Source of the DNA: an uncultured Thermoanaerobaculia bacterium | GTDB lineage: Bacteria > Acidobacteriota > Thermoanaerobaculia > Thermoanaerobaculales > Sulfomarinibacteraceae | Assembly (NCBI GenBank): GCA_964565045.1 | Contig: CAZMED010000001.1 | Coordinates: 169-64,168, forward strand | Length of the DNA: 64,000 nucleotides | Direction of reading: 5' to 3' | Shown: positions 1,390-63,520 of the stretch, piece after piece | Layout of the letters: each line of letters opens with the position of its first letter | How positions within the stretch are numbered: the first letter of the stretch is position 1 | Program-made: the position numbers and the translations under genes | The notes under the pieces: model-generated | Seen by the model: the letters and a program-made list of their open reading frames with translations, nothing else | What the model was told of the DNA's origin: nothing | The model's database searches: none

Positions 1390-2465
1390 CACTGGTTCAC
1401 GAGCCGCTGGCGGAACACGGCCTGGACGATGCCGAGGGCTGCACACGTCGAGATCAGGGAGGAGCCGCCGTACGAGAACAGCGGCAGGGTGACGCCCGTG
1501 GTCGGAAGCCAACCCAGGACCATGCCGAGGTTGATGACGAGCTGGAAGACCAGCCAGGCGACGACCAGAACCGCGAGGATCGTGCCGTGCCGGCTGGCGG
1601 CGCCCAGAGCGGCGGCGCCGATCCGCCCCAGCAGCAGGGCGTAGGCGAGGAGGAGAACGGTGGTGCCGATGAAGCCGGTCGCCTCAGCCCATACCGCGAA
1701 CGCGAAGTCGGTGTGCTGGGCAGGCAGGAATCGCAGCTGCGACTGCGTGCCGGAACCCAAACCCTGGCCGGCCACGCCCCCCGATCCGACCGCGATCTTC
1801 GACTGCCGAACCTGGTAGCCGGCGCCGAAGGGATCGCGGCCCGGCTCGAGGACGGTGAGAACCCGCTCCTTCTGATAGGGCTTGAGGAGATACTGCCAGG
1901 TGGTGTAGGCGCCGAGCATGGCGAGAACGATCAGGATCAGCCACACCATCCGCGGCAGCCCGCCCAGCCACAACGCCGCCGCCAGCACGGGCAGGAAGGT
2001 CAGCGCCACCCCGAGATCCGGCTCGAGCGCGATCAGGATCACCGGCGCGCCGACCATCGCCGTCACGGCTGCGACCTCGCGGATCTTGAGCCGGGGATCG
2101 CTGCGCTGGGCGAGCCAGGCCGCGACCATGAGGATCGTCGTGACGCGCGCGAACTCGCTCGGCTGCACCGAGACCGGCCCGACGGCGATCCAAGCCCGGT
2201 TCCCGCCGCGCGAAACGCCGAACACCAGAACCGCCACCAGCGCCAGCAGCCCGGCCCCGTAGAGGATCGGTGCGACCCTCTCGTAGACGTCGAGGCGGAT
2301 GCCCGACAGCAGCCACAGGATGAGCAGCCCGGCGGCGCCCCACGCCGCCTGGCGAAGCAGGAGATTGCCGCCGACCACCCACGACAGGGTGTGCAGGGTC
2401 GGCAGGGACGCACCGAGGATCCCGACCACGGCGAGAATCAGCCACGGATCGATGCGGTGTTCCAC
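1389..2465 (-). CDS. rodA: Peptidoglycan glycosyltransferase RodA (FtsW/RodA/SpoVE family)
   Basis: 358-aa polytopic membrane ORF with the SEDS-type motif LPAQHTDFAFAVWAEATGFIG. It lies immediately downstream of the PBP2 gene. Confidence 0.9.
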   Translation of the reverse strand: MEHRIDPWLILAVVGILGASLPTLHTLSWVVGGNLLLRQAAWGAAGLLILWLLSGIRLDVYERVAPILYGAGLLALVAVLVFGVSRGGNRAWIAVGPVSVQPSEFARVTTILMVAAWLAQRSDPRLKIREVAAVTAMVGAPVILIALEPDLGVALTFLPVLAAALWLGGLPRMVWLILIVLAMLGAYTTWQYLLKPYQKERVLTVLEPGRDPFGAGYQVRQSKIAVGSGGVAGQGLGSGTQSQLRFLPAQHTDFAFAVWAEATGFIGTTVLLLAYALLLGRIGAAALGAASRHGTILAVLVVAWLVFQLVINLGMVLGWLPTTGVTLPLFSYGGSSLISTCAALGIVQAVFRQRLVNQ

Positions 2466-2474
2466 GGGCCGATT

Positions 2475-4259
2475 CTACCCGCGCGGCGGCGCGGCCGCGA
2501 TCGCCTCGCCCGCACTGAGATGGGCCTCGATCACGCGGCCCGCCACCGGGGCGGCGGCGGCCCCGCCGTCGCCTCCGTGCTCGACGATCACCGCCACCAC
2601 CAACTCCGGGTCCTCGAGCGGCGCCCAACCGACGAAGAGCGCGTGGTGGCGCAGGTGCGGCGCCAGGTCGGCCGCCGCCACCCCCTCCTGGAGGCGGGCC
2701 ACCTGAGAGGTGCCGGTCTTGCCGGCGACGGGCAGCCCGGCCAGGCGCCGGGCGGTGCCGTGGGCGCCCTGGACCACCCGTGCGAGGGCGCTGTTGACGA
2801 CCTCGAGGTGGCGTCGGTCGAGCTCGAGCGGAGCCTCCGGTTCGCGGCGGGGCGCGGCCAGGTAGGGCCGCACCGAGCGGCCGTGATTGGCGAGGATCGC
2901 GTAGGCGTAGGCCAGTTGGACCACCGTCGCCAGCACCGGTCCCTGGCCGATAGACACCGAGACCGCCTCGCCTGCGTACCACGCGGTCTTGCGCACGCGG
3001 CGGCTCCATTCGGGCGTGCCGATCAACCCGCTGGCTTCGAAGGCGAGGTCGAGCCCGGTCGCACGGCCGAAGCCGAAGCGGTGCAGCCATTCGGCCATGC
3101 CGTCGATGCCGAGACGTTGGCCGAGGAGGTAGTAGTAGACGTCGCACGACTCCTCGAGCGAGCGCTCGAGATCGACGAAGCCGTGACCGCCCCGCCGCCA
3201 GCACCTGAAGCGATGGCCGTGAAGCACCACCGATCCGTTGCAGTAGACCGTGTTGTCGGGGGTCACGAGGCTTTCGCTGAGGCCGGCGATCGCGAGGAAG
3301 GGCTTGATGGTCGAGCCCGGCGGGTACATGCCTTGCAGGCAGCGGTTCTGCAGCGGATGGCCGGGATCGTCCTGGAGCCGCATCCAGTCCTCGCGGCTCA
3401 GGCGACCGCTGAAGACCGCCGGATCGAAGCTCGGCGAGGAGTACAGCACCCGCACCGCCCCGTTGCGTGGGTCGATGGCGACCACGGCGCCCGCCCGCTC
3501 CCCGAGCGCGTCGGCGGCCACGCGCTGCAGCTCGATGTCGAGGGTCAGGCCGAGATCGTGGCCGGGCACCGGCTCCACCTCGCGCACCACGCCGAGCTGG
3601 CGCCCGACGGCCGACACCATCATCCAGCGCTCGCCGAAACGGCCGGAGATGAACTCGTCCTCGGACGCCTCGATACCGGTGGCCCCGATCATCGCGTCGG
3701 GCTCGAGACTGGGATCGTCTGCAATCTGCTGCTTCGAGACCGGGCGCAGGTGGCCGACCACGTGCGCCGTCAGCTCGCCGTAGGGGTAGTGCCTTCGGGA
3801 GCGGCTGACCACGGAGAGCTCGGGGAAGTCGCTCTGGCGGGCCCTGATCGCCGCGACCTGATTCCAGCTCAGGTTCTCGCCGACCACCACCGGCGCCATC
3901 CGGCTGACGCGACGTTCGGCGAGGATCTTGCGGAACATCGACGCCTCGCTGATGCCCTGGCGCGCCAGGAACAGGGCGGTCTCGTCGATGCTGCGCGCGT
4001 CCTCCGGGTACAGCAGCACCTCCCAGGTGGGCAGATTCTCGGCCAGTACCCGGCCGCGGCGGTCGTAGATCGAGCCCCTGGGCCCGGGCAGCGGCAGCCT
4101 GCGCAGGCGGTTGTTCTCGGCCAGGTCCCGCCACTGGAGGCCGTGCACCAGCTGCAGGTCGACGAGACGGAGATGGAGCAGCCCGAGCGCCGCGAACACG
4201 AGCACGAAGAGGGTCACGGCCCGGCGCCGCAGGGGAGCGGAGTCCTCGCGCAGCTCCAT
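2475..4259 (-). CDS. mrdA: Penicillin-binding protein 2 (elongasome transpeptidase)
   Basis: N-terminal TM anchor, SxxK motif GSTIKPF and KTG motif AGKTGTSQ. I chose the start at MELRED (ATG complement 4257-4259), 4 nt after the mreD stop; the track ORF extends to 4340. Confidence 0.9.
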   Translation of the reverse strand: MELREDSAPLRRRAVTLFVLVFAALGLLHLRLVDLQLVHGLQWRDLAENNRLRRLPLPGPRGSIYDRRGRVLAENLPTWEVLLYPEDARSIDETALFLARQGISEASMFRKILAERRVSRMAPVVVGENLSWNQVAAIRARQSDFPELSVVSRSRRHYPYGELTAHVVGHLRPVSKQQIADDPSLEPDAMIGATGIEASEDEFISGRFGERWMMVSAVGRQLGVVREVEPVPGHDLGLTLDIELQRVAADALGERAGAVVAIDPRNGAVRVLYSSPSFDPAVFSGRLSREDWMRLQDDPGHPLQNRCLQGMYPPGSTIKPFLAIAGLSESLVTPDNTVYCNGSVVLHGHRFRCWRRGGHGFVDLERSLEESCDVYYYLLGQRLGIDGMAEWLHRFGFGRATGLDLAFEASGLIGTPEWSRRVRKTAWYAGEAVSVSIGQGPVLATVVQLAYAYAILANHGRSVRPYLAAPRREPEAPLELDRRHLEVVNSALARVVQGAHGTARRLAGLPVAGKTGTSQVARLQEGVAAADLAPHLRHHALFVGWAPLEDPELVVAVIVEHGGDGGAAAAPVAGRVIEAHLSAGEAIAAAPPRG

Positions 4260-4263
4260 GGCC

Positions 4264-4764
4264 TCAGCGGAGCCTTCGCGCGCGGTAGGTGCGCCACATC
4301 TTGGGGGGGTCGAGAGCGAGGACCATTCCGACGACGCCACAGAAGGCCCCGCTCAGCAGCGCGGTTCGGATCAACTCCAGCGGATCGATGGCCGCGCTCA
4401 GGCCGAGCGGCGCCAGGGCGAGACGATGGACGGCCAGGATCAGCGCGGCCCCGACCGCTCCGAAACCCGCCCACGCCTTGGGCGAGCGGTCGGCCACGAC
4501 CGCAGCGAGACCATCGAGGGCGAGGGCGGCCGCACTCCAGGCGATGCCGCCGGGGCCGACAACCGGCTCGAAGAGCAGGTCCCAGGCGAGGCCGATGAGC
4601 AGGGCCTCGGTGGGCCACGCCCGCTCGCTGCGGCGTAGCGCCAGGGCGACCAGCCACACCACCGGCAGCAGCACGTCACCGGTCCACACCGGAAGCCCGG
4701 GCATGCCCAGCATGCGCTGCACCAGCAGCGTCAGCACCACCGCGAGGACGAAACCGGTCCTCAT
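4264..4764 (-). CDS. mreD: Rod shape-determining protein MreD
   Basis: Small, very hydrophobic protein between mreC and mrdA. The start at MRTGF overlaps the mreC stop (ATGA). The call rests mainly on position and hydrophobicity. Confidence 0.75.
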   Translation of the reverse strand: MRTGFVLAVVLTLLVQRMLGMPGLPVWTGDVLLPVVWLVALALRRSERAWPTEALLIGLAWDLLFEPVVGPGGIAWSAAALALDGLAAVVADRSPKAWAGFGAVGAALILAVHRLALAPLGLSAAIDPLELIRTALLSGAFCGVVGMVLALDPPKMWRTYRARRLR

Positions 4765-8070: not shown

Positions 8071-8315
8071 GGTGCGCAGCGGCTGCACACGGATCACTAC
8101 CCAGTCGAGCTCCAAACCACGTGCCACCGCCGCTCGTCCTCCAAAAAACACCGTAACACGGGCCTTTTCAAGCGGCAAGCAGCCTCGTCCGGGGGGCCTC
8201 GGGCGGCGCGTCCCGCCACTCGAGAAGGGCGGCGCCGGACTCCCACGTCGCTTGCGCCACCAACCGCGCTTCGGTACACTTCGCTGTCCCGACATCGGGG
8301 CGGGTGGAGGACCGG

Positions 8316-10271
8316 ATGGCTCTCAAGTGGCTGCGAGACAACCTGCGTCACCTCAAGTTCATTCTCTGGGGCGTGGTGGCGGTGTTCGTGCTCCTCGTGT
8401 TCGTCGACTGGGGCGCCGGTCGCGCCGGCCCGCAGGGCAGCGGGAACGCGGCCGTCCGGGTCGGGAGCACTTCCATTTCGGAGCAGGAGTTCCTCAACGA
8501 GATGCGACGGCTCGACCAGCGCTTCTCGCAGATCTACGGCGAGCAGTGGAATGAGCTGCGGTCGCAGGTGGACCTCGCCGGGCAGACCGCCAACTACTTC
8601 ATCGATCGCGAGCTGCAGCTCGCCGAGGCCAGGCGGATCGGACTCACGGTGTCGCCCGAGGAGCTGCGCGAGTCGATTCTCGCCAACCCGTCCTTCCAAC
8701 GCGAGGACGGGACGTTCGTCGGCGCCGAGACCTACGAGCGCATCGTGCGCGGGTACTTCCGGATGTCGACGCAGGAGTTCGAGCAGCGCCTCACCGAGGA
8801 TTTGATCATCGGCAAGCTGAACACCCTCGCGGAGCGCAGCGCGTGGGTCGGCGACGCCGAAGTCGAGCGCGAGTACCGCCGTCAGCAGGAGCGCGCGGAC
8901 CTCGAGGTCGTGCAGGTGCGCTACGAGCCCTACCTCTCCGACGTGACGGTCGACGAGGCCGAGGCGCGCGCGGCGTACGAGCAGTCGAAGGAGGACTACC
9001 GGCGCGACGAGGAGCGCCTCATCCGTTACCTGCTGGTGGAGACATCGAAGCTTCGTCGCCTGCTGCCGGTCGAAGAGGACGAGCTCCGCGCCTACTACGA
9101 GGAGCACAAGGACGAGTACCTCGAGGGCGAGCAGGCCAACGCCCGCCACATCCTGATCCGCGTCGCCCCCGACGCCGACGAAGCGACGCGCACGGATGCC
9201 GAGCTCCTCGCCAACGGGGTTGCGAAGATCGCGCGATCGGGCGCCGACTTCGCCGAGCTCGCGGCCAAGCACTCGCAGGACCCGGGTTCCAAGGACTCCG
9301 GCGGCGACCTCGGCTGGTTCGGCCGCGGACGGATGGTGCAGGAGTTCGAGGACGCGGTCTTCGCGGCCAAGCCGGGCGAGATCGTGGGCCCCATCAAGAG
9401 TCAGTTCGGCTACCACATCATCCGCGTCGAAGGCTTCCGGCCCGAGCACCAGCGGCCCTTCGAGGAGGTCGAGGAGCAGGTCCGGTTCGCCGTTGTCGAG
9501 GGGCGTGCGACGGCGGAGGCGGAGACCCGGGCTGCGGTCCTGGCGCGCCGGGTGCGGGCGGAGCCTCCCGCCAGCGAGGAGGCCTGGCAGGCGATCGCCG
9601 ACGAGGACGAGGCGGTGGTCCTCAATCAGAGCCCGTTGTTCGCCGCCGGCGAACCGATCCCTGGCGCCGCCCAGGACGGCTCGCTGGCCGACGCCGCCTT
9701 CGCGGCCGAGGTCGGCGAGATCGGCGGCCCGGTGGCGGTCCCGCGCGGCTGGATGGTGTGGCAGCTGGCGGAGGTCCGGCCCGAGGGCGTGCGTCCCTTC
9801 GACGAGGTCCGCGTCGAAGTCGAGCAGGCGCTGCGCAAGGACAAGGCCATGGAGCGTGCGCGGGAGCAGGCGCGCGACCTCGTCGCCCGCTGGCGCGAGG
9901 GTGCGGAACCTGCGGTGCTGGCCGACGAGGTCGGGAGCACCGTCACCGAGGTGTCCGACTACCGCCGCGGCTCGGCGCTCGACACGCTCGGCGTCGTGCC
10001 GGCAGTCGACGGCGCGGTCTTCGCCGCGGGCGGCGGCGAGGTCCTCGACCCGATCGATGCCGGGCCGCGCGGGGTCATGGTGGTCAAGGTCGGCGCGCTC
10101 GAGCTTGCCGATCCGGCGGGGTTCGAAGCCGAGAAGGAAGGCCTCAGGGCCCGGCTGATGGCCCAGAAGGCGGCCCAGCTCATGCGCGCGACCCTCAACG
10201 AACGCCGGCGCGACACCGTCGTCGAGGTCGACAACGAGCTCCTGCAGAGATTCGCTCCCGCCAGCTCATGA
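8316..10271 (+). CDS. ppiD: Periplasmic chaperone / parvulin-type peptidyl-prolyl isomerase (PpiD/SurA-like)
   Basis: N-terminal anchor LKFILWGVVAVFVLLVFV, a SurA_N-like region, and a parvulin signature ARHILIRV...GGDLGWFGRGRMVQEFEDAVF...QFGYHIIRVEG. A GGTGGAGGA RBS precedes ATG 8316. Confidence 0.8.
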   Translation: MALKWLRDNLRHLKFILWGVVAVFVLLVFVDWGAGRAGPQGSGNAAVRVGSTSISEQEFLNEMRRLDQRFSQIYGEQWNELRSQVDLAGQTANYFIDRELQLAEARRIGLTVSPEELRESILANPSFQREDGTFVGAETYERIVRGYFRMSTQEFEQRLTEDLIIGKLNTLAERSAWVGDAEVEREYRRQQERADLEVVQVRYEPYLSDVTVDEAEARAAYEQSKEDYRRDEERLIRYLLVETSKLRRLLPVEEDELRAYYEEHKDEYLEGEQANARHILIRVAPDADEATRTDAELLANGVAKIARSGADFAELAAKHSQDPGSKDSGGDLGWFGRGRMVQEFEDAVFAAKPGEIVGPIKSQFGYHIIRVEGFRPEHQRPFEEVEEQVRFAVVEGRATAEAETRAAVLARRVRAEPPASEEAWQAIADEDEAVVLNQSPLFAAGEPIPGAAQDGSLADAAFAAEVGEIGGPVAVPRGWMVWQLAEVRPEGVRPFDEVRVEVEQALRKDKAMERAREQARDLVARWREGAEPAVLADEVGSTVTEVSDYRRGSALDTLGVVPAVDGAVFAAGGGEVLDPIDAGPRGVMVVKVGALELADPAGFEAEKEGLRARLMAQKAAQLMRATLNERRRDTVVEVDNELLQRFAPASS

Positions 10272-12061: not shown

Positions 12062-12954
12062 TCCCGGTGCCGGTCATCCTCAACCCGGCGGCCGGCGGCG
12101 GCCGGCTGCTGCGCCGCCGGCGCCGGCTTCTCGCCGCGGCGGCGGCCGCCGACGTCAAGCTCGAGTTCCGGGCCACAGGGGCGCCCGGTCATGCCTCGGA
12201 GCTCGCGGCAGAGGCCGCCGCCGCGGGGGCTCCGCTGGTCCTCGCCTACGGCGGGGATGGCACCTACAACGAGGTCGCGCGCGGGTTGGTCGGCAGCGCC
12301 ACCGCCATGGGCGTGCTGCCCGGCGGCACGACCTCGGTCCTGGCCTACGAGCTCGGCGTCCCGCGCCCGGCGGAGCGCGCGCTCGCCGCCCTCCTCACCG
12401 GAGAGGACCGCGCGATGCGGGTCGGCCGCAGCGACCGTGGAGACCTGGTGCTGCTCATGCTCTCGGCCGGCCCCGACTCCTACGTGCTCGAGCGCCTGCG
12501 GCCCTCCTTGAAGCGCTGCGGGGGCAGGGTCGGCGTCGCCCTCCAGGGCGTCCTCGAGGTTTTCGGCCCGGGCGCCCTCCCCCGCCTGCGAATGACCGTC
12601 GACGGCGACGTCGCCGAGGTCGGCTGGGCCATCGTCGGGAAATCACGCTGCTACGGCGGCCCCTTCCGCGCGACGCCCGGCGCCGACCCCTTCCGCGGCG
12701 ATCTCGAGGTCGTGGCGCAGCGGAGCTCGGGTCGGTGGGCGGCGCTGTCCTTCCTCGGCGGGATTCCCCGCGGCCGCCACGTGCTGCGCCCCGACGTGGT
12801 CCGCCGCCGCGTCGAACGCGTGCTCCTCGAGGCCGCGCCGGGCGCCCCCGCCGTCCCCTACCAGGTCGACGGCGACGTGGTGGGCGTGCTCCCGGTGGAG
12901 CTCGGCCTCGACCCGCGGCCGCTGCAGGTCCGGATGCCGCGGACGGCGCGCTGA
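12058..12954 (+). CDS. Diacylglycerol/lipid kinase family protein (YegS/DAGK catalytic domain)
   Basis: [10 protein letters not shown]...[18 protein letters not shown]...[13 protein letters not shown] (GGDGT motif). A TTG/GTG start overlaps the ruvB stop. Confidence 0.75.
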
Positions 12955-21284: not shown

Positions 21285-21869
21285 TCACCGCTTGAGAGCT
21301 TCGTCCACCTCGAGCCGGCGCTCCTGCGCCGACTGCTGGAGGTTCTCGAGTTGGTCGCGGACCCCGTCGGTGGCGAGGCGGGGCCCGGGGTCTCCGGCGG
21401 CCTCGCCGGCGAGCGTCGCGCGCGCCGCGTCGAGCTTGAAACGCGCCCGATCGAGGTGGGCCGCGGAGGGGTTCAGGGCGTACGCCCGGAGCTCACCGGC
21501 CGCGCTGCGCAGCGACACCGCCACGTGCAGGTCGGAGCTCGCCGACGGCGCGACGGCGGCCCAGGACCCCGTCGTCTCGGCGAACACGCGGAGGTCGGCG
21601 AGACGGTCGTCGATGGTGTCGGGGGCCGCCAGCAGCGCCTCGAGGGCTGCGACCATGGAGGCCGCGGCGGTGGGGTCGAACGGTTGTCCGGACGCACCCT
21701 CCTCGCGAAGCCCGTCGGCCATCGTGGCGACTGCGTCGAGGCTGGAGTCCGCGTCCCGGCCGCTCAGGTAGAGCACGTAGCCGGCGGCCACCAGCACCGC
21801 GATCATGAACGCGCCCGAGAATCGCACGCCGCCACCTCCAAGCTTCCAGTATAGCCCGCGGTGTGTCAT
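21285..21869 (-). CDS. Hypothetical membrane-anchored helical protein
   Basis: A single TM (FSGAFMIAVLVAAGYVLYL) followed by an Ala/Leu-rich helical region. Start uncertain (21869 or 21806). Confidence 0.5.
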   Translation of the reverse strand: MTHRGLYWKLGGGGVRFSGAFMIAVLVAAGYVLYLSGRDADSSLDAVATMADGLREEGASGQPFDPTAAASMVAALEALLAAPDTIDDRLADLRVFAETTGSWAAVAPSASSDLHVAVSLRSAAGELRAYALNPSAAHLDRARFKLDAARATLAGEAAGDPGPRLATDGVRDQLENLQQSAQERRLEVDEALKR

Positions 21870-21968
21870 CTGCCGCGGACACTTCATCGAGGCTGCCGTC
21901 CCGCCTTCCCGATTTCCGCTGCCTCGAACGCGGCACGGTCCTTGCTGAAGCTCCCGGCGGAGGATGAC

Positions 21969-22853
21969 ATGCCACGCACGACCCGGCCCCTGGTTTCGGC
22001 CCTCGCCGCGCTCGCGGCGCTCACCCTGGCCCCGACGGCGTCGGCGCAGCTCGCCGCGGACTGGATGGTCCCGGCTTCCGCCCACAATCCCGGCGTCGGT
22101 GGGACGTTCTGGAGGACCGACCTGTCCCTCCACAACCCCCACCAGTACGAGCTCCCGGTGGTCGTGCAGATGTTGCCAAGCGACTCCGAGAACGTGAACG
22201 TCCCGACCCTCGACCTCACCCTGTACCCGTGGGAGACCGTGAACCTGTGGGACGTGCTGGGCGCGGGCGCGTTCGACTTCGAGGGCACGGCGGCGATCCT
22301 CGCTTACGCGGATCCTTCTCTGGACTGTGATCCCATCGAGTCCTGCCACTTCCTGGCGACCTCGCGGACCTACACGCCGGACGGGTCGGGCGCTGGCGAG
22401 TACGGCCTGACCGTTGCCGGCGTCGGCGTCGGCCGCGCCACCGACTGGTCGCACTTCGGCTACGCGGCCGGGATTCTCAACGACGGGGCGTTCTTCCGCT
22501 GCAACGTCGGCGTCGCCTCGTGGACTCCGGAGTGGACCACGGTGCGGGTCGATGTGCAGAGCGCCGAGGGGCAGATCGTGAGTTCGGAGACCTTCGAGCT
22601 CCCGCCATTCGGCCACAGCCAGCGGCGGCTGGCGACCGCAGTCGAGGGCGGCAGCCTCGTCTTCTACCTCGAGGCCGGGCCGGACGATGCGGCCGTCTTC
22701 CCCTATGCCACCGTCATCAACCAGGTGACCGGGGACGCCAGCTTCTTCTTCGCGGAGGCGTCCACCGTCGGCGTCTCGGCGAGCAAGGGGCGAGTTGCCG
22801 CCGGCCGCCCGCCAGTGCCGCGAGCCGGCCCGGCCGTGGCGCTCTCGCGCTGA
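21969..22853 (+). CDS. Secreted hypothetical protein
   Basis: Signal peptide MPRTTRPLVSALAALAALTLAPTASA, then a beta-rich sequence (GGTFWRTDLSLHNP...). GGAGGA lies upstream of ATG 21969. No family name recalled. Confidence 0.6.
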   Translation: MPRTTRPLVSALAALAALTLAPTASAQLAADWMVPASAHNPGVGGTFWRTDLSLHNPHQYELPVVVQMLPSDSENVNVPTLDLTLYPWETVNLWDVLGAGAFDFEGTAAILAYADPSLDCDPIESCHFLATSRTYTPDGSGAGEYGLTVAGVGVGRATDWSHFGYAAGILNDGAFFRCNVGVASWTPEWTTVRVDVQSAEGQIVSSETFELPPFGHSQRRLATAVEGGSLVFYLEAGPDDAAVFPYATVINQVTGDASFFFAEASTVGVSASKGRVAAGRPPVPRAGPAVALSR

Positions 22854-22889: not shown

Positions 22890-22919
22890 GTGACACCGCG
22901 GACGGGTGGGGTTCATAAT
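22890..22919 (+). promoter_or_regulatory. Putative sigma70-type promoter for the GTPase-kinase fusion gene
   Basis: GTGACA (22890-22895), an 18-nt spacer, then CATAAT (22914-22919), about 25 nt upstream of ATG 22943. Pattern match only. Confidence 0.3.
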
Positions 22920-22942
22920 GGGTACTCCAGGTTCGGAGGCCC

Positions 22943-25114
22943 ATGGTCCAGTTCGACAACCAGAACCGGCAGATCAAGATCAAGATCGTCTTCTACGGAC
23001 CGGCCGTGGGCGGCAAGACGACCTCGCTGCAGCACATCCACCGCATCACCGACCCCGAGCAACGGACCAAGCTCTACTCGCTCAACACGGCCAACGACCG
23101 CACCCTGTTTTTCGATCTGCTGTCGCTGAACCTCGGCCGCATTCGCGACTTCCGTCTCGTGCTCCAAGTCTTCACGGTGCCCGGCCAGGTCCAGTACGAC
23201 GCCACGCGGCGCACCGTGCTCGCGGGCGCGGACGGGGTGGTCTTCGTCGCCGACTCGCAGGCGGCGCAGCGGCAGGCCAACCTCGCCTCGCTGGCCGACC
23301 TGAAGACCAATCTGGCGGCCAACAACCTCGACGCGGCGGCGACCCCGCTGGTCTTCCTGTACAACAAGCGCGATCTCGAGCCGGTGCTCGGCATCGACGC
23401 GATGGACGCCGAGCTCAACCCGGACGGACGGCCCTCCTTCGCCGCCGTGGCGACGCGGGGCGAAGGCGTCCTCGAGGCCTTCACCGCGATCGGCGAGTTG
23501 ACCCTGACGTCGATCGCCGAACGGCTCGGCATCGGCACCAGCCCTCAGGCTGCCGAGCAGCTGCGGCAGCAGATGGCGAGGGCGATGCAGCCCTATCTCG
23601 GCGCCGCGCCCGCCGCGGCTTCGGATGACGTCGAGATCACCCTGCCGGCCGGCCAAGGTGACGAGACCGGGGTGTTCAAGGACCGGGACCTGGTCGCCGA
23701 GGCGGTGCGCTCGAGCCTCGCCGTCACCGATCTCAGCAGCCGCCTCGACCTCGCGCAACGCCAGCTCGAGCGTCGGGTCCGCGAGATGGAGAACATCTCC
23801 GAGTTCGGCCGCGCGGTCAGCAACGAGCGCGATCCGGCGGCCGTGCTCCGCCTCCTCATCACCACCACCATCCGCCTCCTGCAGGTCAAAGGCGCGTCGG
23901 TGCTCGTCCGCCACGACTCGGAAACGCTCCGCGAGGCGGTGCTGCACGGTTTCGAGACCGATCCGCTGATGCGCCACACCGAGCACGACGGCCACCCTCT
24001 CGCAATGGCGCTGCTCGACGCCCGGACCCCATGCCTTCTCGCCCGCGGCCTGGACGACGACACCCAGGCGATGACCCTGATGGCGGTGGAGAACGCCGGC
24101 TTCACGTCGGCCGCGGCGGTGCCCCTTCTGACCCAGGACAAGACGGTGGGACTGCTCGCTGCATACGGCGACAGGGAGCGCCGCGATCTCGACGAGGGAG
24201 ACCTCCAGGCACTCTCCGTTCTTGGCGCCACGGCCGCCATGGGTTACGCCAACGCCATCGCCTGGCGGCAGATGGAGGAGCTCAGCCAGGGCCTCGAGGC
24301 CCAGGTCGCGGAGCGGACCGCCGAGCTCCGCAACACGCTCGCGGAGTCGCGCCGCCTGGCGGCCGACGTGGCCGACAAGAAGGCCCTCCTCGAGAGCGCC
24401 TACCGCGACCTCGCGGCCCTCGACGAGGTCAAGAACCAGCTCATCAACCGACTGTCGCTGGAGTTCCGCACGCCGGTCACCTCGCTCTTCACCGCCGCCA
24501 AGGTCCTCGGCCGCAGCGATCCGGTGCCGCCCGACAAGGCCGCCCGGCTGGTCACCGTCATCCGCGACGAGGCCGAGAAGCTGCTCGAGATGATCGAAAG
24601 CGTTTTCCAGGCCTCGGTGCTCGGCAGCGGCGCCGGCCGGGTGCAGCCCAACCCCGCCCCGGCTCAGGAGCTCTTCCGAAGCGCGATCGCGCCGCTGCGC
24701 GACCTCGCCCGGCAGCGCGGCGTCAAGGTCCAGGTGATGGCTCCGAACGACCTCGAGACCGTCCTGTGCGAACCCGAGTCGATCGAGGCGGCCCTGCGGG
24801 CGGTCATCCGCAACGGCATCGAGTTCAACCACCCGGGCGGCGAGGTCCGGCTCGAGGTGCGGCGGGTGTCCAGGGACGGCAGGCCCTGGCTCCAGCTGCG
24901 GGTGATCGACACCGGGCCCGGCATCCCGGAGGCGGACCTGCCCGAGGTCTGCTCGCCCTTCTGGCAGGGCGACGACGCCGCCGCGGGCAAGCGCTACGGC
25001 ATCGGCCTCGGCCTCACGATCGCCAAGCGGGTGGTCGAGAACCACGGCGGCGAGCTCAGCATCACAAGCGATCAGGGCGAGGGCACGCGGGTGGTTCTGA
25101 CCCTCCCCCAGTAG
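22943..25114 (+). CDS. MglA-like small GTPase fused to a GAF domain and a histidine-kinase-like core (degenerate H-box, intact HATPase_c)
   Basis: aa 1-195 carry MglA blocks (KIVFYGPAVGGKTTSLQHIH, DRTLFFDLL, FTVPGQVQYDATRR, GVVFVADSQ, YNKRD). A GAF-like region spans about aa 283-440. The DHp-like helix reads LINRLSLEFRTPVTSL. HATPase_c motifs are RNGIEFN, DTGPGI, SPFW and GIGLGL. It is a single uninterrupted 723-codon frame with GGAGG before the ATG. Confidence 0.85.
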   Translation: MVQFDNQNRQIKIKIVFYGPAVGGKTTSLQHIHRITDPEQRTKLYSLNTANDRTLFFDLLSLNLGRIRDFRLVLQVFTVPGQVQYDATRRTVLAGADGVVFVADSQAAQRQANLASLADLKTNLAANNLDAAATPLVFLYNKRDLEPVLGIDAMDAELNPDGRPSFAAVATRGEGVLEAFTAIGELTLTSIAERLGIGTSPQAAEQLRQQMARAMQPYLGAAPAAASDDVEITLPAGQGDETGVFKDRDLVAEAVRSSLAVTDLSSRLDLAQRQLERRVREMENISEFGRAVSNERDPAAVLRLLITTTIRLLQVKGASVLVRHDSETLREAVLHGFETDPLMRHTEHDGHPLAMALLDARTPCLLARGLDDDTQAMTLMAVENAGFTSAAAVPLLTQDKTVGLLAAYGDRERRDLDEGDLQALSVLGATAAMGYANAIAWRQMEELSQGLEAQVAERTAELRNTLAESRRLAADVADKKALLESAYRDLAALDEVKNQLINRLSLEFRTPVTSLFTAAKVLGRSDPVPPDKAARLVTVIRDEAEKLLEMIESVFQASVLGSGAGRVQPNPAPAQELFRSAIAPLRDLARQRGVKVQVMAPNDLETVLCEPESIEAALRAVIRNGIEFNHPGGEVRLEVRRVSRDGRPWLQLRVIDTGPGIPEADLPEVCSPFWQGDDAAAGKRYGIGLGLTIAKRVVENHGGELSITSDQGEGTRVVLTLPQ

Positions 25115-25127
25115 ACGTACGCCCCGT

Positions 25128-26507
25128 TCACGGCGCGGACAGGATCTCCCGGCGGCAGCCGTCGCCCGCCTCGCGGGCGGCGTCCGTGGCCGCGTCGACG
25201 GCGGCCTCGGAGGCGATCTCGAGCACGCCGCCGCCGCCGTCCGGCAGGGTTCGCGGCCAGGCGCCGATCTCGGGGATCTGGGCGCGGCCGATGTGGAGGC
25301 AGGCTCCAAGAGGCGTCGCCCGCCCGGGGCCGAAGACCTCGCGCAGGGCCGGCGGGAAGTCGGCGAGCCGCGCCAGCCGCGAGCCGACCCGGCGCGACAG
25401 GCGATCCAGCAGTGCCCGCCGGAGACGGTCGTGCGGCACCGGCAGGGTGGCCAGGACGTAGAGCACGAGGTCGGCCGGGACCGATGCGAGGTGGACCGCC
25501 AGGGTGGCGGTGCCGGGATCGACGCTGAAGTGCGGCGCGGCCGCGGCCGCGGTGCGCGACCACATCGTCACCACCCTGTGAATGAAGGAGTCGAGCTTGG
25601 CGACGTCGGGGCGGCGGAGAAACACCGCGCCGGCGAGGTCCGGCCACACCTGGTGGCGGTTCGCCGAGCGCTCGAGCTCCTCCAGGGTCAACGGCTCGGG
25701 GACGCCGCTTGCCCGCACCGAGCGCGCGAACACCATCTGGTTCCAGGCCGCGTGCGGGAGCCCGAGGAGGCCGACCGGTTCGCCGTCGGCCGCGGTGCGG
25801 CCGATCCCCGCGACCCGGAGCCTGGGCATGGGAACCAGGCCCGGGCTCGAGGCCAACCACTGGGCGATGGCGCCGACGATGTCGTGCACCTGGTCGTGGA
25901 GGTTGCTGAGCTCGTGCCCGCTCACCGATTCGTCGGTGGTGACACCGACTCGGACGAGCTCCCAGAAGAGGCTCTCGAAGGCCTCCCCGGTCAAGGGCAG
26001 CTCGTGCTCGAAGAGGTCCTGCTGCGGGACCGCATACTCGTCGGTGCGTCTCGCCGCCTCCATCAGCAGCCGGCTCGGCTGGACGTCGAGCCTGAGGCCG
26101 AGCACGTCGAGCACCGGATGGCGCGGGTCGAAGTCGAAGTGCACCTCGGGCGACACCAGGAGCCGGCTCGTGATCACCTCGGCGAGCTCGGAGAGGGCGC
26201 GGTGCAGGCTCGTCCCGTCGACGGTCCCGTGGGCGATCAGCAGGTCGGTGAACAGGGTGCGCCGGAGCATCGAAACAGCGAGCAGGCGCTGCAGCTCGGC
26301 CACGGGCGCCAGCCCGCGGGCGGCGATCCACGACGCGAGACGCTCTTCCGCGATCGTCGACGAGACGTAGCAGACCCTCCCGGAGTTGAAGTCCAAACGG
26401 CGCTCGCCGCGGCGGTCCTTGAGGGCCAGGCGGCCGCTGATGCCTCCCATCTGAAACCACTGCAGGAGGTCTCCGAAGTGCAGTCGGTCCAGGCTGCCGC
26501 TGATCAT
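25128..26507 (-). CDS. PATAN/DUF4388 domain protein
   Basis: N-terminal MISGSLDRLHFGDLLQWFQMGGISGRLAL fits the DUF4388 (PatA N-terminal-like) signature GSL..h.l.DllQ......tG.L.l. GGAGGA RBS present. The remaining ~350 aa are unassigned. Confidence 0.7.
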   Translation of the reverse strand: MISGSLDRLHFGDLLQWFQMGGISGRLALKDRRGERRLDFNSGRVCYVSSTIAEERLASWIAARGLAPVAELQRLLAVSMLRRTLFTDLLIAHGTVDGTSLHRALSELAEVITSRLLVSPEVHFDFDPRHPVLDVLGLRLDVQPSRLLMEAARRTDEYAVPQQDLFEHELPLTGEAFESLFWELVRVGVTTDESVSGHELSNLHDQVHDIVGAIAQWLASSPGLVPMPRLRVAGIGRTAADGEPVGLLGLPHAAWNQMVFARSVRASGVPEPLTLEELERSANRHQVWPDLAGAVFLRRPDVAKLDSFIHRVVTMWSRTAAAAAPHFSVDPGTATLAVHLASVPADLVLYVLATLPVPHDRLRRALLDRLSRRVGSRLARLADFPPALREVFGPGRATPLGACLHIGRAQIPEIGAWPRTLPDGGGGVLEIASEAAVDAATDAAREAGDGCRREILSAP

Positions 26508-44618: not shown

Positions 44619-45470
44619 TCAACGGGATTCTCCCAGATTTTGTTGCAGCTCGCCCAGCAAGGGCCGCACCTGCTCGTCGAACATCGCGGCCGTGTCGGCG
44701 CCCTTGAGCAGCGAGATGGCCTTGGTGTTCTGTTCGACCATCTCCCGCAGCGCGTGAAAACCCTCGCCGCGTTCGATCAGGGTGCGCGCTGCACCGTACT
44801 GTTTGTCGATCGTCCGCTGGCCCCCGGTACCGACGACGTCGAGCGCCACCGCGCGGATCTTCTCGGCCAGCCCGAGCAGGGTAACAGGGCTCGCCCCCGC
44901 CTGCCAGCGCTGGCCCCGTTCTCCGGCCTCGCTCGCGCTGCCGAGCGCCACCAGGCCGGTGGTGATCAGCCCGAACAGGAGCTTCGAAACGTCGAACGGC
45001 GCCCACTTCAGCGCCCCCGCGATCTCCTCGATGGAGTGCTGGCCGTCGATCCGGGTGACCAGGATCCACTCCTGGGGGCTGAGGGTGACCTGGTCGGCGC
45101 CGCGGTCCCGTGGCGTGAAGTACGGCACGAGGTCGAGCGACGGGATCTTGCGCCGCAGCACCCGCCACTCGTCCAACCGGCGCGCCGCCTCCATCATCAG
45201 CGAGGCGTTCGACACGTGGATGGTGACCTGCTCGCACTCTTCGCCGGGCAGGAACTCGAAGGTTCCGTCCGCCCACATCGCCATCTCGAACACCGCGTTG
45301 TCGCCGCGGAGATTGCCGACGGCGGCGTCCACGATCTGTCCGTCGCGCAGGACGATGCGCCCGGCCTGCTCGTCGCGCTGGATGTTGAACGCGCCCGTCT
45401 TGCCGGAAACGCTCACCAGTTGGATGACGTCCGACAGCGGCAGCTCGCTCAACGACCCTTGCAGCGACAT
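44619..45470 (-). CDS. PATAN/DUF4388 domain protein (second copy in the window)
   Basis: MSLQGSLSELPLSDVIQLVSVSGKTGAFNIQ... (DUF4388 signature), followed by a SPQEWILVTRIDGQHSIEEIA wHTH-like segment. It lies 10 nt downstream of the tonB stop and 20 nt upstream of the TPR gene. Confidence 0.7.
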   Translation of the reverse strand: MSLQGSLSELPLSDVIQLVSVSGKTGAFNIQRDEQAGRIVLRDGQIVDAAVGNLRGDNAVFEMAMWADGTFEFLPGEECEQVTIHVSNASLMMEAARRLDEWRVLRRKIPSLDLVPYFTPRDRGADQVTLSPQEWILVTRIDGQHSIEEIAGALKWAPFDVSKLLFGLITTGLVALGSASEAGERGQRWQAGASPVTLLGLAEKIRAVALDVVGTGGQRTIDKQYGAARTLIERGEGFHALREMVEQNTKAISLLKGADTAAMFDEQVRPLLGELQQNLGESR

Positions 45471-45480
45471 TGTGGAGAGT

Positions 45481-46215
45481 CTACTGCAGATTGAATCGCA
45501 CCGTGAGGATGTAAAGGACCTCCACCGGCTTGCCGTTGAGCGTGGACGGCTCGAAGCGCCACTTCTGGACGGCGTCGACCGCGGTCTCGGTGAGCCCGAG
45601 CGGCAGGCCGCGCAGGACCTTGACGTTCTGCACCCGCCCGTCCTTGCCGATCGTGCATTCGAGCACGACAACGCCCTGGATCCGCGCCCGACGGGCCGCT
45701 TCCGGGTACACCGGCGAGGGGCCGCTGATCTTGACCGGCTCGGTGATGTTGCCGCCGACCACGAAGCGGACGGGGCCCTCCGGCTCGGGCGGGGGGGGCG
45801 CGTCGGGGACGCCGAGCACCAGGTTGTCGTCGGGCACGAAGTCGATGTTCTCGTCCGGCTGCTCGTCGCGGATCGGCTCGGGCTCGTCCGGCGTCGGATC
45901 GGGGATCGGGACCTTCTGGGTCTTCGGCTTGGGGATCTGCTGCATCTCGCGCCGTGGCGGCTGCTTGAACTTGACCTGCTTGACGACGTAGATCTTGCTC
46001 TTCTTCTCTTTGGCATCCGACAAGCCGCCGGCGAAGGAGGGCCACTGGACGGCGAAGACAATGACGTGGAACACGATCGCAATGCCGAAAGCCCAGCGCG
46101 CGAACTTCCGATCCTGGGTTTCCTCCGCGGCCAGCATTTCGGCCGTGGTCATCGGCATGTCGGAGTCGTCGACCGCGTCCGGCTTGGTCTTCTTGGGCTT
46201 CCCGGCGTCGCTCAT
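45481..46215 (-). CDS. tonB: TonB-family energy transducer
   Basis: TM anchor FARWAFGIAIVFHVIVFAV, a Pro-rich spacer (PPPPEPEGP), and the TonB_C motif YPEAARRARIQGVVVLECTIGKDGRVQNVKVL. GGGAG precedes ATG 46215. Confidence 0.88.
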   Translation of the reverse strand: MSDAGKPKKTKPDAVDDSDMPMTTAEMLAAEETQDRKFARWAFGIAIVFHVIVFAVQWPSFAGGLSDAKEKKSKIYVVKQVKFKQPPRREMQQIPKPKTQKVPIPDPTPDEPEPIRDEQPDENIDFVPDDNLVLGVPDAPPPPEPEGPVRFVVGGNITEPVKISGPSPVYPEAARRARIQGVVVLECTIGKDGRVQNVKVLRGLPLGLTETAVDAVQKWRFEPSTLNGKPVEVLYILTVRFNLQ

Positions 46216-48498: not shown

Positions 48499-49248
48499 TC
48501 AGCTCTCCGCCAGCAGCTCGTCGTCGATGTCGAAGTTCGCCCACACGTTCTGCACGTCGTCGTGGTCGTCGAAGGCCTCCATGAGGCGGATCATCTGCTG
48601 CGCCTGTTTGCCTTCGAGCCGGGTCGTGGACGAGGGCTCCATCTCGAACTGCGCGGCTTCGACCATGAGCCCTTCGGCCTCGAGCCGGTCCTTGACCAGG
48701 TGCAGCTCCTCGGGGCTGGTGAAGATCCGGAAGTAGTCCTCGTCGTCGAGGTCGAGGTCCTCCGCACCGGAATCCAGGACCAGCTCCATGACGCGGTCGT
48801 CGTCCAGGTCCTCGGACCGCGGGATGAGGATCAGGCCCTTGCGGGCGAACAACCAGGACACGCAGCCGTTCTCACCCAGGTTGCCGCCGTGCTTGGAGAA
48901 CAGGTGGCGGATCTCCGGCGTGGTGCGGTTGCGGTTGTCGGTGAGCAGCTCGAGCATCACGGCGACGCCGCCGGGACCGTAGCCCTCGAAGCTGATCTCC
49001 TCGTAATTGACCCCGGGAAGCTCGCCGGTGCCGCGCTGGACCGCCCGCTTGATGTTGTCGGCCGGCATGTTGGCGGCCTTGGCCGCGGCCACCGCGGCCC
49101 GCAGGCGGGGGTTGGCGTCCGCGTCGCCTCCCCCCTCCCGCGCCGAGACCGTGATCTCGCGGATGATCTTGGTGAAGATCTTGCCGCGCTTGGCGTCGGC
49201 CCGGCCCTTCTTGTGCTTGATCGTGCTCCACTTGCTGTGGCCCGACAT
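48499..49248 (-). CDS. yebC: YebC/PmpR-family transcriptional regulator
   Basis: MSGHSKWSTIKHKKGRADAKRGKIFTK...; classic yebC-ruvC pairing. Confidence 0.93.
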   Translation of the reverse strand: MSGHSKWSTIKHKKGRADAKRGKIFTKIIREITVSAREGGGDADANPRLRAAVAAAKAANMPADNIKRAVQRGTGELPGVNYEEISFEGYGPGGVAVMLELLTDNRNRTTPEIRHLFSKHGGNLGENGCVSWLFARKGLILIPRSEDLDDDRVMELVLDSGAEDLDLDDEDYFRIFTSPEELHLVKDRLEAEGLMVEAAQFEMEPSSTTRLEGKQAQQMIRLMEAFDDHDDVQNVWANFDIDDELLAES

Positions 49249-49350
49249 GGACCCTCCTCGTGTCCCGCCCCGCGCGGCTGCTGCGGATGCGGAGGTTGGG
49301 CATTATACCTCGGGGCCGGCGCCGGCCGCCGGGGATGCGGCGGCCTTCGG

Positions 49351-49378
49351 TTGACTTTGCAAACCCGTCACACATAAT
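49351..49378 (+). promoter_or_regulatory. Putative sigma70-type promoter for the Ser/Thr kinase gene
   Basis: TTGACT (49351-49356), a 16-nt spacer, then CATAAT (49373-49378), about 47 nt upstream of ATG 49425. Pattern match only. Confidence 0.4.
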
Positions 49379-49424
49379 GAGGTTTGGACACTTCGACCAC
49401 GGCAGGGGCTGCGAGGGCGGTTTG

Positions 49425-61914: not shown

Positions 61915-62346
61915 TCACCCGGACTCCGGGTCGCGTTCGCCGCCGCCATCCGACCGGGAGCGCGCACCTTCCAGCCGCAGGGTCCGGCGCCGGTGGGCGT
62001 CCTCGATCTTGAACATCAGCTCGTCGATGCTGACCGGCTTCAACAGGTAGTCGAAGGCGCCCATGGTCATCCCCTCCAGCGACGCCTCGAGGCTCGCGTG
62101 CCCGGTGAGCAGGATGACCTCGACCGTCGGATGGGCGCTGCGGATCTCCTTCGTCGCTTCGATGCCGCCCATTCCCGGCATGCGGACGTCGAGGACCACG
62201 ACGTCCACCTCCTCCCGGTCGAGCGTCGCCAGCGCCTCGGCGGCGCTCGCAGCCGTCAGTACCTGCAGCCTGCGCAGGGCGAGCCGCCTGCTGAGCGTCT
62301 CCACGAAGCTCGTCTCGTCGTCGACGAGCAGCACCTTGATCGTCAT
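61915..62346 (-). CDS. Single-domain response regulator (REC)
   Basis: KVLLVDDE, VVVLDVRMPGMGG, LLTGHAS, AFDYLLKP. Confidence 0.9.
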   Translation of the reverse strand: MTIKVLLVDDETSFVETLSRRLALRRLQVLTAASAAEALATLDREEVDVVVLDVRMPGMGGIEATKEIRSAHPTVEVILLTGHASLEASLEGMTMGAFDYLLKPVSIDELMFKIEDAHRRRTLRLEGARSRSDGGGERDPESG

Positions 62347-62355
62347 GCGTCCTCC

Positions 62356-63492
62356 TCAGGCCCGGCGGCGGGGCACCACCACGCGGAAGGTACAGCCCGC
62401 CCCCGGCCTGCTCTCGACCTCGATGCGGCCGCCGAGCTTCTCCACGATACCCCGCGACACGGACAACCCGAGGCCGGTTCCGTGGCCCGCCTCCTTGGTG
62501 GTGAAGAACGGCTCGAAAATTCTCTCGATGTGCTCGTCGGGAATGCCCGGTCCGTCGTCGATGACGGCCATCGTGACCTGGTCTCTCGCGCCGTCGACCG
62601 CGATCTCGACACGGCCCCCGCGGGCAACCGCCTGCACCGCGTTGGTGACCAGGTTGAGAAGCACCTGGCGCAGCTGGTAGGGGTCGGTTTCGGCTGTCAG
62701 GTCGGCGTCCTCGGGCCTCGTCACAACGACCTCGATGTTGTCGGTGGCCGCCGAGCGCCGGGTCAGCTCGCGAACCTCCAAGGCCAGCTCGCCGAGGTCG
62801 GTGGCGCGCACTGTGGCGTCCGGCGCGCGGGCGAAGTGCAGGAAGTTCCGGCTGATGCGGGCCGCGCGATCGACCGCGGACTCGATCTTGTCGAGGGCCC
62901 GGGCCGAGGCCTCCCGCAGCTCCTCGGCGGAGAGCTCGGGCCGGCCGGCACGGGAGCGCAGCCAGCCGGCTGCTTCGGAGATCACCGCCAGTGGATTGTT
63001 GATCTCGTGCGCGATGCTGGCCGCGAGCTCGCCGAGAGAGGCGAGCCGGTCGGCGACGATCATGTGCTCCTGGAGCTTGTCGGTGAAGGTCTCCCGACCC
63101 GCCACCTCCTCGCCGCGCCTCCGGCTGAAGGCTTCATCGATCTTCTCCACCAGCTGCGCCAGCTTGACGGGCTTCGTGAGGTAGTCGAAGAACCCGAAGC
63201 GCATGCCCTCGATGGAGGACTCGAGGTCGGCGTGGCCGGTGAGCATCACCACCTGCACCTGCGGGTGGCGGTCCTTGATGCGGCGCAGGGTCTCGATCCC
63301 GTCCATGCCCGGCATGCGCACGTCGAGAACGACGACGTCGAGCGGCTCGCGGTCCAGGATTTCGAGCGCCTCGGGCCCGCTGCCGGCGGTCAGGACCGGC
63401 AGCCCGCGCAGCTCGAGGCGCTGGGCGAGGCTCGACAGGAAGTCGATCTCGTCATCGACCAGAAGGACGCGGGGTCGGGTCGTCTCATTCAT
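62356..63492 (-). CDS. Hybrid REC-histidine kinase (REC + HisKA + HATPase_c)
   Basis: RVLLVDDE, VVVLDVRMPGMDG, the H-box LAASIAHEINNPLAVI, DDGPGI, and GTGLGLSVS. Confidence 0.9.
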   Translation of the reverse strand: MNETTRPRVLLVDDEIDFLSSLAQRLELRGLPVLTAGSGPEALEILDREPLDVVVLDVRMPGMDGIETLRRIKDRHPQVQVVMLTGHADLESSIEGMRFGFFDYLTKPVKLAQLVEKIDEAFSRRRGEEVAGRETFTDKLQEHMIVADRLASLGELAASIAHEINNPLAVISEAAGWLRSRAGRPELSAEELREASARALDKIESAVDRAARISRNFLHFARAPDATVRATDLGELALEVRELTRRSAATDNIEVVVTRPEDADLTAETDPYQLRQVLLNLVTNAVQAVARGGRVEIAVDGARDQVTMAVIDDGPGIPDEHIERIFEPFFTTKEAGHGTGLGLSVSRGIVEKLGGRIEVESRPGAGCTFRVVVPRRRA

Positions 63493-63520
63493 CGTCGAAC
63501 CGGCGTCTGATCGCGGTGTG

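Follow-up and report, generated by a model that had tools for sequence, protein, structure and literature searches.

A conserved fusion of an MglA-type GTPase with a GAF domain and a predicted pseudo-histidine kinase in Acidobacteriota

A 64,000-nucleotide stretch of contig CAZMED010000001.1 from an uncultured Thermoanaerobaculia bacterium (assembly GCA_964565045.1; hereafter the window, with a G+C content of 70.5%) carries a gene at positions 22943-25114 that very probably belongs to a conserved family in which an MglA-type GTPase domain (G domain), a GAF domain and a pseudo-histidine kinase are fused in one polypeptide. To our knowledge, MglA, the model bacterial Ras-like polarity switch, has been studied almost wholly as a stand-alone protein under MglB and RomR/RomX. 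The original prediction for this gene, made from the sequence alone, named no characterised protein of such architecture, and a literature search likewise found no published description of an MglA-GAF-kinase fusion. The domains themselves are already known; the novelty lies in the conserved architecture and in the informative evolutionary series that accompanies it. A conserved fusion would show another mode of controlling an MglA-type switch and would provide a one-polypeptide system for communication between a G domain and a kinase fold. The family also bears on how surface structures might be regulated in the poorly studied Acidobacteriota.

The gene is a single open frame of 723 codons without interruption. 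The kinase part of its product consists of a dimerisation and histidine phosphotransfer (DHp) region and a catalytic, ATP-binding (CA) domain. The features of the gene and its product are as follows:

22943-25114 (+): whole gene for the predicted MglA-GAF-(pseudo)histidine kinase fusion, 723 amino acids (open reading frame, Pfam, homologues)
22890-22919 (+): promoter-like site GTGACA-18-CATAAT, 10 of 12 matches, one found against 0.0 expected in shuffles; a consensus match only
22933-22937 (+): Shine-Dalgarno sequence GGAGG, with the ATG 5 nucleotides further on
22943-23527 (+): putative Group-1 MglA-type G domain, residues 1-195 (match to MglA in PDB entry 5ymx, E 1.7e-50)
22997-23020 (+): P-loop of the G domain, GPAVGGKT, with Ala at MglA position 21 (motif)
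23096-23104 (+): D52-R53-T54 with the intrinsic Arg finger (motif)
23174-23188 (+): TVPGQ, T78-Q82 (motif)
23363-23374 (+): NKRD (motif)
23528-23680 (+): tether, residues 196-246, a conserved helix (201-219) and then a variable low-confidence part (222-246) (AlphaFold 2 model, alignment)
23681-23824 (+): long helix into the GAF domain, residues 247-294, probably a coiled-coil or signalling helix (AlphaFold 2 model)
23828-24241 (+): GAF domain, residues 296-433 (Pfam GAF_2 E 4e-8, GAF 6.8e-8)
24242-24430 (+): signalling helix from GAF to DHp, residues 434-496 (AlphaFold 2 helix 418-466, a break, and a helix from 476)
24431-24616 (+): HisKA/DHp, residues 497-558, with a degenerate H-box; Leu506 at 24458-24460 (Pfam, PDB alignments)
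24776-25108 (+): HATPase_c, the ATP-binding domain, residues 612-722; N, G1 and G2 boxes intact (Pfam E 3.8e-23)

The original prediction described one frame running from a GTPase into a GAF/kinase part; the frame is indeed uninterrupted and all of the motifs quoted for it are present. Pfam matches tile the single polypeptide in the way that was anticipated, with Arf-like at residues 10-158 (at its cut-off), GAF/GAF_2 at 296-433, HisKA at 497-558 and HATPase_c at 612-722. The N-terminus MVQFDNQ is kept in the closer clades of the family (about 43-100% identity), and distant clades start with MVQI, MAQI or MVQFRH. An AlphaFold 2 model based on a 53-sequence alignment (mean predicted local distance difference test, pLDDT, 71.5; predicted template modelling score, pTM, 0.36) orders the parts as the G domain, helix 201-219, the low-confidence segment 222-246, helix 247-294, GAF (298-417), helix 418-466, a two-helix DHp (476-522 and 530-561) and CA (570-722), and pLDDT falls below 50 over residues 222-269. 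The layout predicted by this model is that of a dimeric sensor kinase coupled through coiled coils, to which the G domain is attached by a flexible tether. The tether has residues conserved in the family alignment (G196, G198, P201, Q202, L207, Q210 and P217), and given its modelled flexibility at about residues 196-246 the earlier idea of a direct wiring of the nucleotide state to the GAF/ATPase module is not supported. The nearest solved GAF domain is that of a sigma-54 regulator (3k2n, E 8e-5), and no GAF ligand could be inferred from solved-structure matches as weak as this one.

A search of 5.8 billion proteins recovered more than 120 full-length homologues (61-97% identity, 710-773 amino acids), which originate from ENA, JGI, NCBI and Logan assemblies. 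When one genome was scanned for each GTDB species, 46 continuous full-length fusions (688-748 amino acids) were obtained, the closest of which, at about 66% identity, come from Candidatus Sulfomarinibacteraceae, and an exhaustive HMMER search against 1.84 billion cluster representatives added dozens of 50%-identity clusters with end-to-end matches. The genomes that carry fusions are labelled in their records as Thermoanaerobaculia, Thermoanaerobaculum sp., Holophagae, Aminicenantes or unclassified Acidobacteriota, and one (locus L014) only as 'bacterium'. Existing automated labels of the homologues read 'histidine kinase / SRP receptor beta (GTPase)' or 'ATP-binding protein'. The fused G domains cluster together in a neighbour-joining tree, apart from Myxococcus xanthus MglA and from 'long MglA' paralogues, and a single origin of the fusion would therefore fit.

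A sequencing or assembly frameshift that joined mglA to an adjacent gene for a GAF kinase would also produce such a frame, and the original prediction had raised a misjoin or frameshift as a concern. The full-length homologues are independent, coming from different samples and assemblers, the same continuous frame occurs at about 45 genome loci, and the ratio of nonsynonymous to synonymous substitution (dN/dS) in the linker is 0.13-0.24. Misassembly or frameshift is ruled out by the homologues and genome loci that carry the continuous frame, and the chance of an artefact is practically nil.

Many other proteins with an N-terminal MglA (350-800 amino acids) appeared in the same HMMER search with other C-terminal extensions. 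When ten 'long MglA' proteins (425-934 amino acids) were scanned, most extensions contained no Pfam domain, and one protein (P0166) consisted of MglA, GAF, PAS and HATPase_c. At loci L050-L083 (Aminicenantes, Thermodesulfobacteriota and others), many G-domain relatives that pass for stand-alone proteins are really 310-510 amino acids long, with extensions that have no Pfam domain (for example, L054 9971-11032 and L077 9983-11347), and because of this length they would be missed by surveys of proteins shorter than 240 amino acids. A survey of prokaryotic Ras-like GTPases left out proteins longer than 240 amino acids (PMC4316618). Ala occupies position 21 in all of these G-domain relatives; their genes are usually followed by one for a membrane or secreted protein (450-660 amino acids), and at some loci a PATAN gene lies 2-3 kb downstream.

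The kinase module of the window protein is, as judged from its sequence, a pseudokinase without canonical His-Asp phosphotransfer, because the phospho-acceptor His is absent. The H-box (nucleotides 24446-24478) reads N-R-L-S-L-E-F-R-T-P-V, and in alignments with 7z8n and WalK (5c93/4u7n) Leu506 occupies the position of the phospho-acceptor His in S-H-E-[IL]-R-T-P-L. There is no His anywhere in the DHp helices (residues 476-561). The histidine-kinase core of the original prediction thus stands as regards GAF, DHp and a HATPase_c with its ATP motifs, but it is not complete, since Leu506 takes the place of the acceptor. The HisKA match scores 29.2 bits against a cut-off of 26.9, and the residues that flank the missing His (S505, E507, R509, T510 and P511) are conserved, so that the ExxT motif (E507/T510) is retained. 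The ATP-binding residues N624, D656-x-G-x-G660 and G686-x-G-L-G690 (including G658 and G688) are invariant. Nei-Gojobori dN/dS values, calculated by region between the window gene and its orthologue at locus L084 (80% identical), were as follows:

G domain: 0.185
Tether/coiled-coil, residues 196-290: 0.237
GAF: 0.191
GAF-to-DHp helix, residues 441-495: 0.159
DHp: 0.155
DHp-CA linker, residues 566-599: 0.381
CA: 0.174

Every domain is under purifying selection and the module has not decayed (dN/dS about 0.15-0.24). A fold that stays under purifying selection after the His is lost is the mark of a pseudo-histidine kinase, and this pattern is seen in both DHp and CA, together with repeated losses of the His. 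In a neighbour-joining tree of the family the window protein's clade, which has L, S or G at the His position throughout, is nested among His-containing sisters, and at least five separate clades have lost the His, with L, G, S, E, T, N, A, Q or D at its position. The His-bearing groups have H-boxes of the form ISHELKTPV (L029, L010-12, L016), IAHELNTPV (L021-30) or VSHEMKTPL (L040-49). DHp identity is 53-66% in His-less clades versus 74-81% in His-containing ones, and CA identity is similar in both.

Invariant ATP-binding residues and purifying selection on CA despite the loss of the His are also what would be expected if CA were a GHKL-type Ser/Thr kinase that phosphorylates the neighbouring PATAN protein (see below), the G domain or its own linker. 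GHKL Ser/Thr kinases have precedents in SpoIIAB/RsbW and in plant phytochromes. Such an activity is improbable here: the module has no likeness to anti-sigma-type kinases, its best matches are ordinary HisKA kinases, and no conserved acceptor Ser/Thr could be identified beyond residues that are conserved in normal kinases too.

The N-terminal domain can be classed by sequence criteria as a genuine Group-1 MglA. Group-1 MglA proteins have an intrinsic Arg beside the G2 Thr, TVPGQ in G3 with the catalytic Gln, and NKRD in G4 (PMC4316618). R53 (in DRTLF) and TVPGQ are invariant in 46 of 46 full-length fusions, and G4 reads NKRD in the window protein and in the majority of fusions, with NKQD in nine; it is this conservation of the Arg finger, TVPGQ and an NKxD motif across the fusions that underlies the Group-1 placement. 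Searched against PDB sequences, residues 7-193 give an E-value of 1.7e-50 with M. xanthus MglA (48% identity over the G domain), 5e-43 with Thermus thermophilus MglA and only 1.6e-3 with the next family, Arl2. NCBIfam has no MglA-specific model, and the sole match there was TIGR00231, under its cut-off. The MglA identity that was first proposed from motifs is upheld by the E-value against M. xanthus MglA and by the presence of R53, TVPGQ and NKRD.

In other respects the fusion departs from the Group-1 description. Group-1 proteins are single domains of about 150-240 amino acids, and the fusion has 723 residues and three further domains; no MglB gene was detected within four genes of it in the window or at the fusion loci; and the Gly expected at position 21 is Ala in the window protein and in 42 of the 46 fusions. 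Position 21 of MglA is equivalent to G12 of Ras, and the G21V substitution in MglA impairs hydrolysis. MglA proteins with Ala or Ser at this position tend to occur in genomes without MglB and are predicted to be GTP-bound (Milner et al., PMC3983030). Searches with M. xanthus MglB (identical to PDB 6h5b_B) by phmmer and one profile iteration found no MglB/Roadblock match in the window or at any fusion locus, with a sensitivity limited by the strong divergence of Roadblock proteins. Robl_LC7 is absent within 10 kb in the Pfam lists of three relatives, and no second MglA paralogue was found in the 64-kb window. Because of Ala21 and the lack of a nearby MglB, classic switching of the fused G domain by a GTPase-activating protein (GAP) is doubtful.

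The G domain is better conserved than any other part of the fusion, at about 78% identity inside clades and 60% across the whole family, compared with 30-40% for the other domains. It was kept unchanged while the catalytic His was repeatedly lost, a pattern suggesting that the G domain carries the indispensable function. The same observations argue against a reversed flow of information, in which the G domain would be the input, reading cellular GTP/GDP or an upstream GAP or guanine nucleotide exchange factor (GEF), and the output would be a protein-protein interaction of DHp/CA. The N-terminal domains of typical sensor kinases are inputs, and in the actinobacterial conservon information passes between a kinase and an MglA-like GTPase, in one direction or the other (PMC4316618, PMC12236503). 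Given the conservation of the G domain, this reversed arrangement appears quite improbable, even more so than a Ser/Thr kinase.

The genes next to the fusion co-vary with the His. A response-regulator receiver (REC) gene adjoins 18 of the 22 His-containing fusions and none of the His-less ones, and no REC open reading frame was found within 3 kb of the window fusion or of any His-less relative. At all of loci L021-L030 an overlapping upstream gene encodes REC-HisKA(SHE[IL]RTPL)-HATPase_c (378 amino acids in L027), and a gene for a 125-residue CheY-like REC protein follows downstream except at L021, which has the upstream REC-histidine kinase (REC-HK) gene alone. The L040-49 clade has one REC gene, 5 nucleotides upstream of the fusion. 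The REC neighbours are on the same strand as the fusion and were confirmed with Pfam on L027 and L040. Four loci are intermediates (L010, L011, L012 and L016), with the His and a PATAN neighbour and no intact REC.

In Thermoanaerobaculum-type genomes (L027 9560-13221) the His-bearing fusion lies in the middle of an operon in the order REC-HK, MglA-GAF-HK and CheY-like REC, with stop and start codons that overlap or abut. This operon occupies the syntenic spot (secreted protein ... RimK) where the window has its PATAN gene. At L011, positions 12257-12825 (+), between the His-containing fusion and the PATAN gene, there are out-of-frame fragments of a PP2C/SpoIIE-like domain and of the C-terminal half of a REC domain, which may be what is left of a response-regulator gene in decay, in line with a path of REC loss. 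The window has a three-gene operon that matches the REC-HK beside His-containing fusions in layout and length:

61918-63910 (-): REC (129 amino acids), REC-HisKA-HATPase_c (378 amino acids, H-box SIAHEINNPL) and REC (143 amino acids) (Pfam)

This operon was considered as a relocated partner of the fusion and rejected. It has a different H-box and is only 29-32% identical to the REC-HK beside His-containing fusions, for which true orthologues share 41%, and it is therefore best regarded as a paralogue.

The His-containing relatives clearly pair with REC proteins, and the His-less DHp/CA of the window protein could still dock a phosphorylated response regulator encoded elsewhere, either sensing its phosphorylation state and relaying this back to the GAF and G domains, as in DivL-like reverse signalling, or merely dephosphorylating it. 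The residues kept around the missing His and the purifying selection on DHp suit such a role, and the E/DxxT/N motif of HisKA proteins is a phosphatase determinant (PMC3510030). DivL, in which the His is substituted, senses DivK~P (PMC4211667), and a DivL structure (4q20) is among the PDB matches of the fusion. The lack of an adjoining REC gene at every His-less fusion and the paralogous nature of the 61918-63910 operon argue against this role, as do the decay of ExxT itself in other His-less clades (for example, MSEQLNPPV and IANDLRAPV) and the lower DHp identity in His-less than in His-containing clades. We regard a regulator-sensing or phosphatase function as unlikely.

Beyond the stop codon of the window fusion lies a gene of another kind:

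25128-26507 (-): PATAN/DUF4388 protein, 459 amino acids, convergent, 13 nucleotides past the fusion stop; a candidate partner (Pfam)

DUF4388 covers residues 3-157 of this protein (E 5.4e-16), and the other 300 or so residues have no assignable domain. It has no REC domain, which excludes its direct control by phosphorylation. A convergent orthologue is found at 19 fetched loci (16 full-length fusions, His-less or His-containing, plus L001-L003), reaching down to fusions about 50% identical, and at L084. In a distant His-less clade (L034 and L039; 28-29% identity to the window protein) a same-strand gene for a protein with TPR and a C-terminal DUF4388 (E about 1e-21) lies directly downstream, and its product is not orthologous to the 459-residue protein. 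A Thermodesulfobacteriota 'long MglA' locus likewise has a PATAN gene. His-less fusions in two separate clades adjoin unrelated PATAN proteins, and the family appears to have repeatedly exchanged response-regulator neighbours for PATAN neighbours. Group-1 mglA/mglB genes tend to lie near PATAN genes (PMC4316618), an association that these fusions extend, and in cyanobacteria the PATAN domain is an output that binds PilB1 and PilC and sets pilus polarity (10.1101/2021.06.11.447907). The recurrent PATAN neighbour offers a testable lead on the long-noted, unexplained association of MglA with PATAN, and the variation within the family (His with REC, His with PATAN, no His with PATAN) is a natural experiment in the conversion of a kinase to a pseudokinase.

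In the best overall explanation, whose chances we consider about even, the fusion is a pseudokinase scaffold, dimeric in form, by which a tethered MglA switch is gated, and its likely partner is the PATAN protein. The ancestor would have been a true histidine kinase with an MglA domain that worked with adjacent response regulators. In the window lineage the His would then have been replaced by Leu, the REC genes lost and the phosphotransfer route abandoned, with the G domain, GAF, dimerisation helices and ATP-binding domain all retained under selection. The cytoplasmic protein probably forms a dimer, binds ATP and uses its GAF domain to sense a ligand. The conformation of GAF/DHp/CA, dependent on ligand or ATP, would gate the effector face or the nucleotide state of an MglA domain that is MglB-independent and probably slow-hydrolysing (Ala21), so that the pseudokinase module would replace an MglB-type GAP in its role. 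The GTP-bound G domain would act on the PATAN protein encoded tail to tail with it, and by analogy with other PATAN proteins the latter may be connected with a polar machine, for instance the motor of the type IV pilus. This specific gating and PATAN mechanism is more tentative than the scaffold as a whole and is somewhat likelier to be wrong than right. A more sweeping proposal, which is rather unlikely to hold in full, is that the fusion provides a self-contained alternative to GAP/GEF logic, in which a cis-fused GAF/ATP-binding pseudokinase dimer drives an MglB-independent MglA and then a REC-less PATAN effector, and living lineages record the stepwise rewiring of output from REC to PATAN.

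Several points weigh against a gated MglA switch with a PATAN partner. The AlphaFold check proposed at the outset gave a flexible tether, and docking of the G domain on DHp/CA could not be read from the model, in which inter-domain contacts are unreliable (pTM 0.36). E507-x-x-T510 and the conserved DHp are equally compatible with a phosphatase or response-regulator-sensing role, and a cognate response regulator could be encoded elsewhere in the genome, beyond the visible 64 kb, as could an MglB. The impairment of hydrolysis by Ala21 is a prediction by analogy with Ras G12 and MglA G21V. The PATAN neighbour is missing in the close relative L009 and in the His-less L014, L018, L020, L032, L033 and L047, and PATAN synteny within Thermoanaerobaculia may be due in part to shared descent. 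Finally, no type IV pilus genes were found among the approximately 20 window open reading frames scanned, and these genes too could lie in another part of the genome.

Other genes noted in the window are the following:

44622-46148 (-): second PATAN/DUF4388 protein, about 509 amino acids stop to stop; domain at residues 230-329, E 6e-23, and an N-terminal half without an assigned domain (Pfam)
49221-52352 (+): protein with an unusual combination of REC (residues 73-186), eukaryotic-type Ser/Thr kinase (423-685) and TonB_C (965-1043); coordinates stop to stop (Pfam)
21861-22853 (+): 330-residue secreted protein with no Pfam match (Pfam scan)
21288-21899 (-): protein of about 200 amino acids with a membrane helix and no Pfam match (Pfam scan)
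1392-4352 (-), 8157-10268 (+) and 59260-61872 (-): ordinary housekeeping genes at three intervals (RodA/FtsW, a penicillin-binding protein 2-type transpeptidase, a SurA/PpiD-like peptidyl-prolyl isomerase and phosphoenolpyruvate synthase/pyruvate phosphate dikinase)

The genes at 21861-22853 and 21288-21899 are syntenic upstream of the fusion in all close relatives, even in L027.

Among known systems, the fusion is closest in its G domain to MglA/MglB of M. xanthus and T. thermophilus, with which it shares R53, TVPGQ instead of DxxGQ, NKRD and a tendency to have PATAN neighbours. MglA is a stand-alone protein of about 195 amino acids, whereas the fusion carries 528 extra residues, has Ala rather than Gly at position 21 and has no MglB/Roadblock gene in the window or at the fusion loci searched. 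The MglA of Bdellovibrio bacteriovorus, an orphan, likewise has no adjacent mglB and a non-Gly residue (S21) at this position, but it is a single domain that acts with RomR and a TPR protein, and the partner domains of the fusion are in cis.

The conservon (AGPS), made up of the CvnA kinase, the CvnB Roadblock protein, CvnC and the MglA-like GTPase CvnD, is the sole described functional coupling of a histidine-kinase-type protein with an MglA-family GTPase (PMC4316618, PMC12236503). It consists of four proteins, with a membrane kinase that has its His, a Group-2 GTPase (GTPGQ, no Arg finger) and an obligatory Roadblock, in contrast to the single soluble polypeptide of the fusion, which has a Group-1 G domain, a GAF domain, no Roadblock that could be found and, in the window lineage, no His. 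A conservon is defined by a four-gene cvnABCD operon with Roadblock and DUF742 partners and a Group-2 GTPase, and the fusion does not fit this definition; it has TVPGQ and R53, its loci gave no Roadblock match, and it belongs to Acidobacteriota, not Actinomycetota. DivL of Caulobacter crescentus is a HisKA/HATPase_c protein in which the His is replaced by Tyr, as it is by Leu in the fusion, and it has been retained as a scaffold or sensor and not as a phosphodonor (PMC4211667). DivL has PAS inputs and a membrane anchor, senses DivK~P and controls CckA, whereas the fusion has a GTPase and GAF and no adjoining response regulator; by this analogy the pseudokinase would be DivL-like in function, not in ancestry.

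The PatA-type (PATAN-REC) regulators of cyanobacteria share their PATAN/DUF4388 domain with the conserved neighbour of the fusion, which differs in having no REC and consists of PATAN and about 300 further residues; the fused MglA is possibly a non-phosphorylation controller of this neighbour. In Roco proteins such as LRRK2, a Ras-like Roc GTPase and a kinase fold are present in one dimeric polypeptide. The concept of a G domain joined to a kinase-fold module is thus shared with the fusion, but Roc-COR and a eukaryotic-type kinase stand against MglA and a GHKL/HisKA module, and the origins are independent. The ancestral operon proposed for the fusion, with its kinase, REC proteins and MglA domain, would resemble a compressed version of the Frz kinase-REC-MglA circuit of Myxococcus.

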